A stretch of 32,000 nucleotides of DNA from Candidatus Heimdallarchaeota archaeon. Lineage in GTDB: Archaea; Asgardarchaeota; Heimdallarchaeia; JABLTI01. The stretch covers positions 18,239 to 50,238 of the forward strand of contig JAUWKS010000022.1 of assembly GCA_030614005.1 (NCBI GenBank), given 5' to 3'. The notes under the pieces were generated by a model that ran no database searches, was not told where the DNA came from, and was given only the letters and a program-made list of their open reading frames with translations. Within the stretch, counting starts at the first letter, position 1, and the number at the start of each line of letters is the position of its first letter. Positions 28,976-30,016 of this stretch are shown here, piece by piece. Position numbers and translations under genes: made by a program.

Positions 28976-30016
28976 TTATTGTTCAGCCAATCCAGGGAAA
29001 TAATATTTTGTTCCACTCGAGTAACTAGTATCTTTTATTGCTAAACCAGACTTTACAAATTTGTCCATTTCCACTGAAGCTTCTTCTATAGACCAATTTG
29101 TAATCATAATGAGTTCTTCAAGAGTAATATAACCCTTTCTTTTTGCAAGTCCAAGTATAATATTCGTTTCAGTTTCTGAAGGATGTAGTTGAATCCAAAA
29201 TTGTCCGTCTCTATCTTGTTTTAGGATGAGCAAGCCAGTTTCATCTAAATTGGCAAGTACTTTTTGCAAATCGTCGATTTCAGCTTTCACTCTTGGATAT
29301 TCTTCATTTAGGCGTGAAAATATTGCTCTTATCGCAATTGGTTCTGTAGAAGAGCTAGAATCAAAAGTCATTATTATTTTCAAAATAATATTTCCCAATT
29401 GGTCATAATATTTTCCTTTGCCAAGCAAGCGCGGTTTGTCTAATTTCAGGATTCCTTTTAGTGCACCTGCTTTTTCTGCAAATTCAAGTTCTTTATTAAA
29501 AGAAAGCAATAATGTTTCAGCAACTTCTTCTGATGATTGAATATTTACCGCAATATTTTCTTTGTTAGAAAATAACTCAGACATTGATTGAATGTCATCT
29601 AGAATCTGTTTTGCTAGTGATTTTATTTCATCCTTCTCTTCAAAAATAATCAAAGAGTCAATGCGTCCAAAAATTATTTTTAAATCCCAACATTTGCTAA
29701 AGATAATGAAATCATAGAGGATAGCATTATTAAAAATGGTTTTTCGTTTTTTATCAGAAGTACCTGGTCGAATCTGCACTTCTATTCGCCTAGATTGATC
29801 TATCAAAGTGTCAATTCTCAATCGTAATTGACCCATCAATCTTGAAATATCTTCTAGGTATTTACTTGATGATTGAGCGTTCATTACAATGGTTCTAATA
29901 TCAAATAATAGAGTGGTTGAAACTGAATGTAATTTCTGTTCGTACACCTTTAATTTATAGAGATCTTTTGGTCTATCTATTAAATCTTGCAAAGCAGTAA
30001 GTTTAGCATTACTCAT
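28976..30016 (-). CDS. ESCRT-II Vps22/SNF8-like (EAP30) winged-helix protein with an unknown N-terminal helical domain
   Basis: LLGKGKYYDQLGNIILKI, DDLQKVLANL and IILGLAKRKGYITLEELIMITNWSIEEASVEMDKFVKSGLAIKD...YYFPGL match the Vps22/36 C-terminal pattern as recalled. Confidence 0.82.
   Translation of the reverse strand: MSNAKLTALQDLIDRPKDLYKLKVYEQKLHSVSTTLLFDIRTIVMNAQSSSKYLEDISRLMGQLRLRIDTLIDQSRRIEVQIRPGTSDKKRKTIFNNAILYDFIIFSKCWDLKIIFGRIDSLIIFEEKDEIKSLAKQILDDIQSMSELFSNKENIAVNIQSSEEVAETLLLSFNKELEFAEKAGALKGILKLDKPRLLGKGKYYDQLGNIILKIIMTFDSSSSTEPIAIRAIFSRLNEEYPRVKAEIDDLQKVLANLDETGLLILKQDRDGQFWIQLHPSETETNIILGLAKRKGYITLEELIMITNWSIEEASVEMDKFVKSGLAIKDTSYSSGTKYYFPGLAEQ

Follow-up and report, generated by a model that had tools for sequence, protein, structure and literature searches.

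The EAP30-family subunits of ESCRT-II are well described. Vps22 (SNF8/EAP30; PDB 3CUQ, 2ZME and 1U5T) and the canonical Vps22 of Asgard archaea (asCOG cog.002769) are both composed of a helical domain and, behind it, two winged helices (WH1 and WH2). Vps36, the second stalk subunit in eukaryotes, has the same parts and is extended at its N-terminus. The two stalk subunits pair in the Y-shaped 2:1:1 complex, and Vps25 is bound through WH2. The field started from the statement that Asgard genomes have one Vps22/36-like gene each and that the origin of Vps36 falls within eukaryogenesis (PMC9192718). The canonical Asgard gene is typically encoded together with Vps25, Vps28, Vps23 or ESCRT-III/Vps4 (PMC9192718, PMC10936438), and a fused form of Asgard Vps22 carrying an N-terminal steadiness-box hairpin has also been described (PMC10936438). 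Later surveys mention EAP30 paralogs, and no description of a long one was found in the literature searched (PMC10936438). Outside ESCRT-II, the soluble SPFH protein YdjI of Bacillus is required, with the membrane proteins YdjG and YdjH, to localise PspA (PMC8581546), while contextual links between ESCRT, SPFH and zinc-ribbon proteins were reported in other archaea by Makarova et al. 2024 (PMC10936438). Tandem winged helices are likewise present in UFL1-DDRGK1, the winged-helix scaffold E3 of UFMylation (PDB 8B9X), whose partner UFC1 has been reported as exclusive to eukaryotes (PMC10183829).

In this study, a window of 32,000 nucleotides (the whole stretch of DNA that was analysed) from a Candidatus Heimdallarchaeota genome was investigated, and we observed that it encodes a long EAP30/Vps22 paralog (Table 1). 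This protein is a true member of the EAP30/Vps22 family, with a Vps22-type core in which two winged helices follow a short helical domain. The Pfam EAP30 profile (PF04157) matched residues 131-329 with its positions 38-218 at E=1e-6 and 29.1 bits, above the curated gathering cut-off of 26.8 bits, and the genome-wide EAP30 scan gave the same protein 29.8 bits. Human SNF8 (3cuq_A) was matched at E=2.7e-6 over residues 196-343 in a single-sequence phmmer search of the PDB, and at E=2e-18 by the long-paralog profile, which covered both winged helices. The first-pass annotation had pointed to segments in which the C-terminal part follows human SNF8/Vps22, and the phmmer alignment displays exactly these segments, pairing (SNF8 first) LGVGDFYYELG with LGKGKYYDQLG, DDLIRAIKKL with DDLQKVLANL, VLQLAEKNGYVT with ILGLAKRKGYIT, and, towards the C-terminus, GLAWLD with GLAIKD and YWLPAL with YYFPGL; the GxGxxYYxxLG and YYFPGL-type motifs of Vps22/SNF8 are also found here. 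With respect to structure, the best PDB matches of the AF2 model in Foldseek were 2zme_A, 3cuq_A, 2zme_B and 1u5t_A (E=1e-5 to 4e-4), and ranks 1-20 against Swiss-Prot were all SNF8 and Vps36, with SNF8 15-239 placed onto residues 121-343 and Vps36 159-379 onto residues 123-340. Owing to a different arrangement of the domains, the global TM-scores against the ESCRT-II stalk subunits stayed low, at 0.2-0.35. Homologs that cover the full length number 30, with identities of 49-99%, and those whose source is named carry the label Heimdallarchaeota or Asgard; the gene is therefore a real one and not a chance ORF.

Table 1. Features of the long EAP30/Vps22 paralog and of its surroundings in the window
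Feature	Position	Strand	Basis and remarks
EAP30L gene (long EAP30/Vps22 paralog)	28976..30016	(-)	ORF, 346 aa, stop codon included
Five-helix bundle, residues 1-190	29447..30016	(-)	AF2 model of residues 1-190
WH1, residues 200-277	29186..29419	(-)	AF2 secondary structure, SNF8 alignment
WH2, residues 283-343 (283-339 in the AF2 model), ends in GTKYYFPGL	28988..29170	(-)	BLASTP, AF2
Putative TATA-like AT-rich stretches	30071-30085, 30036-30050	(-)	Read from the sequence
Putative Shine-Dalgarno-like AGGTAG	30022-30027	(-)	6 nt before ATG; read from the sequence
Oligo-T run, eight T, archaeal terminator candidate	28959..28966	(-)	10 nt past the stop codon; read from the sequence
GNAT acetyltransferase, 271 aa, downstream, same strand	28053..28868	(-)	Pfam Acetyltransf_1, E=4e-19
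Two tandem paralogous double-zinc-ribbon proteins, C-terminal hydrophobic tail	26884..28022	(+)	Pfam DZR, Zn_Ribbon_1
Glycine-rich two-helix membrane protein, 79 aa, divergent	30191..30430	(+)	Translation; position kept in the genus of the window

When residues 1-190 were folded alone, AF2 produced a compact bundle (pLDDT 89.4, pTM 0.85), with helices at 19-50, 55-76, 88-124, 128-156 and 162-182. In both the Pfam and the Foldseek alignments, the helical domain of Vps22/Vps36 falls on the last two helices (about residues 121-182), helices 128-156 and 162-182 corresponding to positions 38-90 of Pfam EAP30 and to SNF8 residues 15-89, so that only about 120 N-terminal residues are extra in comparison with a normal Vps22. 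The helical domain directly before WH1, which is the dimerisation element of the stalk, is present and packed into the larger five-helix bundle. A novel N-terminal domain of about 190 aa had been suggested in the first-pass annotation; a bundle unlike both a GLUE domain and the simple N-helix of Vps22 was indeed obtained, but its additional part shrinks to these 120 aa or so once the Vps22-type helices are deducted. Within residues 1-130 no Pfam match and no GLUE or PH domain was detected, the model being all-helical, and the N-terminus gave no VPS28, Vps23_core or CdvA match indicative of a steadiness box at E<=10 with Pfam, where the published assignments used HHpred. Searching 1.84 billion proteins with the bundle profile returned nine matches in total, namely six proteins of about 340-350 aa with the N-terminal bundle, two short fragments and one borderline case. 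The five-helix bundle is confined to the long-paralog protein family, and no relatives are detectable outside it. The fold searches also disclosed no specific match, with a best E of 0.037 in Foldseek against the PDB, a best Z of 13.2 in VIA-align against 48,161 chains (a designed helical repeat, at the noise level of helical bundles) and a best E of 0.011 among the AFDB clusters, to unnamed proteins; nothing specific was obtained from the ESM Atlas either, by shape or by features.

The genome contains three EAP30 genes, in agreement with the earlier view of this gene as a paralog. The canonical Vps22 adjoins Vps28 and UEV/Vps23, and a second, short EAP30 gene adjoins a beta-CASP RNase. Among five other genomes checked, which together represent four families, four gave three EAP30 matches (in two of these the weakest match scores below the Pfam cut-off) and the fifth gave two. 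In the tree, the long forms of the family of the window (f1, comprising two genera) and those of the Candidatus Heimdallarchaeum family (f3) make up one clade with support of 93/94, separate from the canonical group, which has support of 89/88. The profile of the window's family aligns the long proteins of the Heimdallarchaeum family over positions 9-345, at identities to the window's protein of only 22-27%. For the long proteins of f6 and f28, the tree is compatible with orthology as well as with independent elongation. One 294-aa protein (L033, family f14), first counted as long, was dropped on account of its long branch among the short paralogs. Within its class, the long paralog occurs in 18 of the 82 genomes, and most Heimdallarchaeia genomes with a canonical Vps22 are without it. 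Orthology with Vps36 was rejected, since the profiles of all three EAP30 groups favour SNF8: the long-paralog profile gives SNF8 69.6 bits and Vps36 22 bits, and the canonical and short group profiles also score SNF8 well above Vps36. The long paralog further differs from Vps36 in having no GLUE/PH domain or zinc finger, and nothing points to Vps36 orthology.

The resemblance to the canonical Vps22 that this genome encodes is irregularly distributed along the protein, with identities of 22% in the helical domain, 16% in WH1 and 45% in WH2; BLASTP aligned 58 aa of WH2 with the canonical copy at 47% identity (E=5e-16). In genome G015, WH2 is likewise 35% identical to the canonical protein, against 18% for WH1, and the C-terminal YYFPGL motif is common to the long paralog and canonical Vps22. 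This likeness of WH2 is a hint that the protein may still act with ESCRT-II/III, although such conservation could have purely structural reasons. The linker before WH1 (residues 192-201) is modelled poorly and carries the family motif KPxLxGKxKYY, with P195, G199 and K200 invariant across the long paralogs.

Judging from the candidate terminator behind the stop codon, the gene is probably monocistronic in the window. The 271-aa GNAT gene is syntenic throughout the family of the window, in the loci of its first genus (g1) and, at only 30% identity, in the second (g2). The tandem double-zinc-ribbon proteins are also syntenic with the long paralog in this family, and homologs of the 79-aa membrane protein, 41-71% identical, occupy the same position in the first genus. 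A GNAT partner across families was considered and rejected: the 168-aa GNAT upstream of the long paralog in family f6 best matches a gene on contig C12 (46% identity) and the window GNAT at only 28%, so the two adjacencies are unrelated. With regard to ESCRT and ubiquitin genes, the earlier statement that the window has no Vps25, ESCRT-III, Vps4 or ubiquitin gene was borne out, as searches for Vps25, Snf7, Vps4 and ubiquitin gave no match on the contig of the window (C69) and their best matches all lie on other contigs (Vps25 and Vps4 on C85, Snf7 on C9 and C107, ubiquitin on C123). No ESCRT gene was found near the long paralog in any of the 22 loci examined; in contrast to canonical Asgard Vps22, it was never found in an ESCRT-I/II cluster.

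The picture of an orphan, stand-alone gene drawn in the first-pass annotation applies to both genera of the window's family, but the orthologs of the Heimdallarchaeum family are embedded in a conserved cassette. According to Pfam annotation, the gene order in Candidatus Heimdallarchaeum aukensis is ThiF E1, JAB, an 87-aa Ubl candidate, UFC1-like E2, long EAP30 and SPFH, with the SPFH/Band-7 gene about 10 nt downstream of the long paralog. The long EAP30 genes of two further families also have an SPFH gene directly downstream, which was seen in 13 of 13 assessable loci outside the family of the window, the remaining two of the 15 examined being one cut by a contig end and the doubtful 294-aa member. 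[quoted passage not shown] A single gain or loss, or no more than two, may account for the 7/23 split. The 193-aa UFC1-like E2 is a borderline Pfam UFC1 match (26.1 bits against a cut-off of 25). The 87-aa ORF was rejected as Ufm1, having neither a Pfam Ufm1/ubiquitin match nor a PDB match; it ends in Gly, and its feature-based look-alikes have ubiquitin-like domains, which provides a lead only. As to the different input to ESCRT that had been supposed for this protein, the cassette (SPFH, E1, JAB, Ubl candidate and UFC1-like E2) names the likely one. Co-folding of the Heimdallarchaeum-family long paralog with its neighbouring SPFH protein scored 0.38 against 0.00 for the best control. This is a weak pass, and according to the calibration passes of this kind are more often false than true, except where the pair was likely beforehand. 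In the calibration set, 58 of the 80 solved complexes passed, as did 2 of the 110 mismatched pairs, and scores of 0.60 or below comprised only 7 of the 80 solved complexes plus both passing mismatches. Between runs, 96% or more of the contacts were the same, with a partner pLDDT of 86 or higher.

The cassette is scattered in the family of the window, where the long paralog stands alone beside the GNAT gene and the zinc-ribbon membrane proteins, with no SPFH or Ubl-system gene adjoining it. The best match of the genome to the partner-SPFH profile (54 bits) is an SPFH-double-zinc-ribbon protein on contig C91, divergent next to a ThiF E1, and such E1-SPFH pairs are conserved in the genus. Neither Pfam UFC1 nor profiles from the f3 and f6 proteins detected a UFC1-like E2 in this 90%-complete genome, and the only Pfam Ufm1 match is one of 14 bits inside a 718-aa ORF on C123. 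Candidate E2, Ubl, JAB and UFL1-like genes sought in the genome with profiles of the f3 and f6 proteins gave nothing convincing, and in two sister genomes the surroundings of the E1-SPFH pair contained none either. With no adjacent SPFH or Ubl genes and no E2 here, the logic of the cassette is carried over from orthologs of 22-27% identity.

From these data, we tentatively favor, as a reading that falls somewhat short of even confidence, an adaptor that links SPFH/Ubl membrane sites to ESCRT-II/III by means of the conserved WH2. The long paralog would associate with a soluble SPFH protein resembling YdjI and with the zinc-ribbon membrane proteins that go with it, perhaps where the Ubl system has set a mark, and the WH2 of the long paralog would keep the Vps22-type contact which holds Vps25 in eukaryotic ESCRT-II. 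Membrane sites marked by SPFH proteins would thereby be coupled to ESCRT-III, much in the way that Bacillus YdjI brings PspA, a relative of ESCRT-III, to the membrane. The likeness to the PspA-YdjG-YdjH-YdjI system of Bacillus subtilis, and to the archaeal contexts, lies in the combination of a Band_7_1-type soluble SPFH protein (YdjI itself we take to be a Pfam Band_7_1 member), zinc-ribbon membrane proteins and an ESCRT-family component. It differs in that the long paralog is an ESCRT-II-type winged-helix component and not an ESCRT-III/PspA polymer, and in that the Heimdallarchaeum string adds an E1/E2/Ubl/JAB set. A possible but rather unlikely alternative is that the protein acts as another subunit of the ESCRT-II stalk, a functional analogue of Vps36 with no SPFH/Ubl role in this genus, which would use its helical domain to pair with canonical Vps22 and its WH2 to bind one Vps25, with the extra N-terminal helices in place of the GLUE domain as the contact to ESCRT-I, membrane or cargo. 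The Vps22/Vps36 core with its N-terminal extension and the likeness of WH2 to canonical Vps22 (45-47%) are consistent with this, the genome offers a single Vps25 and a canonical Vps22 as possible partners, and a Heimdall Vps22 is a homodimer in vitro where eukaryotes use a Vps22-Vps36 heterodimer (PMC9192718). What argues against a stalk subunit is that the long paralog adjoins ESCRT genes in 0 of 22 loci, is Vps22-like and not Vps36-like by profile, has no GLUE/PH domain, and is missing from most Heimdallarchaeia genomes that keep canonical Vps22.

The gene order in Candidatus Heimdallarchaeum, where the long paralog directly follows the UFC1-like E2 in one string with E1, JAB and the 87-aa ORF and strictly co-occurs with the E2 in that family, could also be read as that of a scaffold or E3-like adaptor of archaeal UFM1-like conjugation, comparable to UFL1 and DDRGK1, with the SPFH protein as membrane anchor. 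In that case a UFM1-like pathway older than eukaryotes (E1, UFC1-like E2, Ubl and JAB), acting on SPFH membrane assemblies, would have the long paralog as its winged-helix scaffold, which we consider improbable. Winged helices make up UFL1 and DDRGK1, which position UFC1 at a membrane, and the orthologs of the long paralog likewise have a membrane-linked context, encoded beside a small Ubl candidate and the UFC1-like E2; Ufm1 homologues have been reported from nine Asgard clades (PMC12962969), and an Asgard origin has been inferred for UFL1 and DDRGK1 (PMC10183829). The UFL1-DDRGK1 chimera 8b9x is among the fold matches (E=0.10-0.17, TM about 0.2), but Vps22/Vps36 match four orders of magnitude better, Pfam gives no match to E3_UFM1_ligase (PF09743) or DDRGK, a separate PCI/UFL1-like protein of 585 aa is encoded next to the long paralog in family f6, and the genome of the window possesses the long paralog with no detectable UFC1-like E2. 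Very improbable, in our estimation, is a DNA-binding transcription regulator with tandem winged helices that is Vps22-like in fold only. The winged helix is the commonest DNA-binding fold of archaea, one Heimdallarchaeum-family ortholog has a weak HTH_24 match (E=3e-4), profile matches to TFE and a sigma factor are weak (E about 0.1), and the fold matches include Rpc34/Rpc6 of RNA polymerase III and ScpB. Nevertheless, the SNF8 match is specific (E=2e-18) and extends over both winged helices, with YYFPGL shared with canonical Vps22, and the gene is operonic with SPFH and not divergent from a regulated operon.

In summary, the three EAP30 matches in this genome and in four of the five others checked, across four Asgard families, contrast with the statement of a single gene per genome, and the surroundings of the long paralog suggest a tie to SPFH scaffolds and to a cassette for UFM1-like conjugation, and not to the ESCRT cluster. 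A UFC1-like E2 is also flagged in Candidatus Heimdallarchaeum, although UFC1 has been reported to be confined to eukaryotes (PMC10183829). Should the scaffold reading be true, an ESCRT-II-type protein would have been wired to a non-ubiquitin Ubl system before eukaryogenesis, and UFC1 would have a Heimdallarchaeial homolog working with the long paralog. If the link between the long paralog and the SPFH/Ubl genes is functional, these archaea would provide a testable case of ESCRT-II-type adaptors joined to membrane microdomain proteins and a second Ubl system.

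Searching 5.8 billion protein clusters with the long paralog, the window's 346-aa EAP30/Vps22-family protein, we recovered 30 relatives of 49-99% identity, nearly all 344-372 aa in length and covering the whole query, and where the source gives names these are hypothetical proteins from Heimdallarchaeota or Asgard MAGs. Their alignment retains invariant residues over its full length, the N-terminal half included; by this sequence comparison the long paralog is a real gene under selection. Since AT-rich stretches resembling TATA elements and an AGGTAG motif were read immediately 5' of the ATG, and an eight-T run starts 10 nt past the stop codon, it appears to be a transcription unit of its own.

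Membership of the EAP30/Vps22 family is established, both from sequence and from fold. Residues 131-329 match Pfam EAP30 at 29.1 bits (cut-off 26.8), and human SNF8/Vps22 was the only match of the single query among all PDB sequences (E=2.7e-6, residues 196-343), improving to E=2e-18 with a profile of 18 long paralogs. The printed PDB alignment reproduces every segment pair on which the first-pass annotation had based its C-terminal likeness to SNF8/Vps22, and that observation is confirmed as a whole. The AlphaFold2 model (27 homologs as input, mean pLDDT 79.7) displays long helices as far as residue 182, a linker of poor model quality at 192-201, and winged helices at 200-277 (WH1) and 283-339 (WH2). 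Its best Foldseek matches in the PDB are ESCRT-II structures from human and yeast, namely their Vps22 and Vps36 chains, and rows 1-20 against the Swiss-Prot models are SNF8 and Vps36, with SNF8 residues 15-239 aligned to 121-343 and Vps36 residues 159-379 to 123-340.

The N-terminal part had been proposed as a novel domain of about 190 aa. Modelled alone with 24 homologs, residues 1-190 form a compact five-helix bundle (pLDDT 89.4, pTM 0.85), which agrees with the helical prediction; only about 120 residues are truly additional, because by Pfam and Foldseek the last two helices are the Vps22 helical domain. No specific match to a known fold was found in any library tried: the best Foldseek hit in the PDB reached E 0.037, an exhaustive VIA-align search gave a designed repeat protein at Z=13.2, a level that VIA-align rates as uninformative for helical bundles, the AFDB clusters gave unnamed proteins (best E=0.011), and the ESM Atlas gave no usable match. 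Among 1.84 billion representative proteins, the bundle profile matched nine, comprising six of 338-348 aa with the match N-terminal, two fragments and one borderline case. As neither profile nor fold searches find others, the bundle is private to the long paralog family.

Three EAP30 genes were detected in the window's genome (3.62 Mb, 126 contigs, 90% complete), so the long paralog is not the sole Vps22/36-type copy; for Asgard genomes a single Vps22/Vps36-like gene has been stated (PMC9192718). The 241-aa copy is the canonical Vps22, and WH2 is the part of the long paralog closest to it, at 45% identity vs 16% for WH1 (35% vs 18% in another genome, G015). The short copy branches in a group apart in the tree, and its pairing with a beta-CASP RNase also appears for Heimdallarchaeota AB_125 in a supplementary gene table of PMC10936438. 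The ESCRT components and ubiquitin missing from the window are dispersed elsewhere, with Vps4 and Vps25 adjacent on contig C85, Snf7 (ESCRT-III) genes on C9 and C107, and ubiquitin on C123. This Vps25 has 291 aa with an N-terminal extension of about 130 aa, and no ESCRT-III gene lies beside it and Vps4 in the 18-kb stretch examined.

Of five further genomes examined, which represent four families including one outside the class, four also gave three EAP30 matches, the weakest falling below the Pfam cut-off in two of them, and the fifth gave two. Their size classes are canonical (~240-250 aa), short (~230-265 aa) and long (~330-390 aa). A maximum-likelihood tree built on the 235-residue core places the long forms of f1 (the window's own family) and f3 (the Ca. 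Heimdallarchaeum family) in one clade (93/94) apart from the canonical group (89/88); the short copies group weakly (79/43), and the long forms of two further Asgard families, f6 and f28, have no resolved placement relative to the canonical group. All three groups score SNF8 far above Vps36 (long 69.6 vs 22 bits, canonical 113.6 vs 41.7, short 69.9 vs 34.2), and the long paralog was accordingly rejected as a Vps36 ortholog. The N-domain profile matched in 10 of 11 other f1 genomes, the sole miss being 64% complete. None of the 40 genomes from the class's five remaining families gave a match, and 7 of 30 f3 genomes did, these f3 matches being by construction because f3 sequences formed part of the profile.

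Coordinates and characteristics of the genes and loci discussed
Feature	Location	Strand/orientation	Remarks
Long paralog	28976..30016	-	uninterrupted ORF, 346 codons
GNAT	28053-28868	-	271 aa; neighbour of long paralog in both f1 genera, even at 30% identity
Two tandem paralogous zinc-ribbon proteins	26884-27345 and 27543-28022	+	one copy kept here across f1
Canonical EAP30 copy	contig C1		241 aa; 82.7 bits, full-length match; near Vps28 and UEV/Vps23 gene
Short EAP30 copy	C46:19551-20243 (L011:8938-9630)		230 aa; 52 bits; adjoins beta-CASP RNase
SPFH-zinc-ribbon protein and ThiF E1 (333 aa)	L037:4879-7061, contig C91	divergent	neighbours HTH_3 protein, M24 peptidase
718-aa ORF and ThiF E1	C123:41271-43424 and 43911-44549		~0.5 kb apart
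f3 cassette	L022:3531-8232; Ca. Heimdallarchaeum aukensis CP084166.1 ~446.8-451.5 kb	co-directional	closed genome, family f3
f6 PCI-protein gene	L029:8450-10207		closed genome G066; zinc-ribbon ORF and ThiF E1 (408 aa) follow

Within f1 the gene context is constant. One flank of the long paralog holds the GNAT, which lies downstream, together with zinc-ribbon membrane proteins, an NTPase and a cupin; the other flank has a CYTH gene and a membrane protein of 75-79 aa. In the second f1 genus the GNAT, zinc-ribbon protein and NTPase are kept at just 30-43% identity. A GH31 gene is sometimes inserted between the GNAT and the long paralog, and the C-terminal half of the window's GNAT (about residues 135-271) has no Pfam match. 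Each tandem zinc-ribbon protein combines a pair of N-terminal zinc ribbons with a Ser/Thr-rich linker, the motif KWYKPPKRT and a hydrophobic C-terminal tail. This layout is reminiscent of YdjG of Bacillus, which is a membrane protein and has a cloning primer that starts with a CPxC motif.

The gene had been described as an orphan; this holds for f1, where its context is non-ESCRT and free of Ubl or SPFH neighbours, but not beyond it. An SPFH/Band-7 gene lies immediately 3' of the long paralog in 13 of 15 loci outside f1 (of the other two, one stops at a contig edge and one is a doubtful 294-aa member), on the same strand and 10-17 nt away wherever coordinates were read. The f3 cassette runs from a ThiF-type E1 (287 aa) through a JAB protease (352 aa), an 87-aa ORF and a UFC1-like E2 (193 aa) to the long paralog and SPFH. 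The product of the 87-aa ORF has RGVVG as its C-terminus and did not match Ufm1 or ubiquitin models; ubiquitin-like domains appear only among its feature-based look-alikes. UFC1 and UFM1 have been reported as exclusive to eukaryotes (PMC10183829); the UFC1-like E2 of f3 has a PF08694 match of 26.1 bits against a 25-bit cut-off. Ufm1 homologues have been reported from nine Asgard clades (PMC12962969), in a paper which makes no mention of UFC1, Vps22 or ESCRT-II. In f6 the opposite strand after the long paralog-SPFH pair encodes a 585-aa PCI protein, which matches E3_UFM1_ligase faintly, and also a ThiF E1, and in f28 the SPFH protein bears zinc ribbons. Long paralog, E2 and SPFH all occur in the same 7 f3 genomes and, with these queries, in none of the other 23, a pattern that may reflect very few evolutionary events because the f3 genomes are kin. 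The orthologs are linked to the SPFH/Ubl cassette both contextually and phyletically.

The profile of this partner SPFH has its top hit in the window's genome in a 325-aa SPFH protein (Band_7_1) that ends in a fused double zinc ribbon and is paired with an E1, an arrangement conserved in two sister genomes together with the HTH_3 and M24 neighbours. No UFC1-like E2 was found in this 90% complete genome. Part of the 718-aa ORF on C123 faintly resembles Ufm1 (14 bits in Pfam; E=0.0016 with the f3 Ubl profile), and the ubiquitin gene of the same contig (49.9 bits) lies about 19 kb away.

Co-folding of the f3 long paralog with its neighbouring SPFH protein, using an alignment for each, gave weak support (score 0.38 vs 0.00 for the best control), a grade of pass that by the tool's calibration is wrong more often than right unless the pair is already likely; the conserved adjacency supplies some of that prior. 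Of 80 solved complexes, 58 reached the pass mark, as did 2 of 110 mismatched pairs; scores of <=0.60 came from just 7 of those 80 and from both passing mismatches. At least 96% of contacts recur between runs, with partner pLDDT of at least 86. We infer an adaptor as the likeliest role, one whose helical bundle or WH1 would contact the soluble SPFH protein. Three rival readings have to be weighed against it: a plain alternative stalk subunit, a UFL1/DDRGK1-like scaffold of a UFM1-like system, and a DNA-binding regulator.

For such an adaptor, zinc-ribbon membrane proteins would probably be required for the SPFH partner to reach the membrane, by analogy with Bacillus, where the SPFH protein YdjI works with the membrane proteins YdjG/H (PMC8581546). 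For the window's genome, the function is deduced from distant orthologs. PMC10936438 records that ESCRT-II paralogs are diverse, that one Asgard Vps22 carries a fused steadiness box, and that ESCRT and SPFH genes are linked by context in methanogens; within the open-access literature, the searched text and tables of that paper do not describe the long paralog or its cassette. The first-pass interpretation, a stand-alone paralog coupling a different input to ESCRT or serving elsewhere, is supported in part. Overall, the long paralog belongs to the Vps22 family, has a domain private to it and lies in a non-ESCRT context; through it, perhaps by way of WH2, membrane sites marked by SPFH or Ubl proteins may be connected to ESCRT-III.
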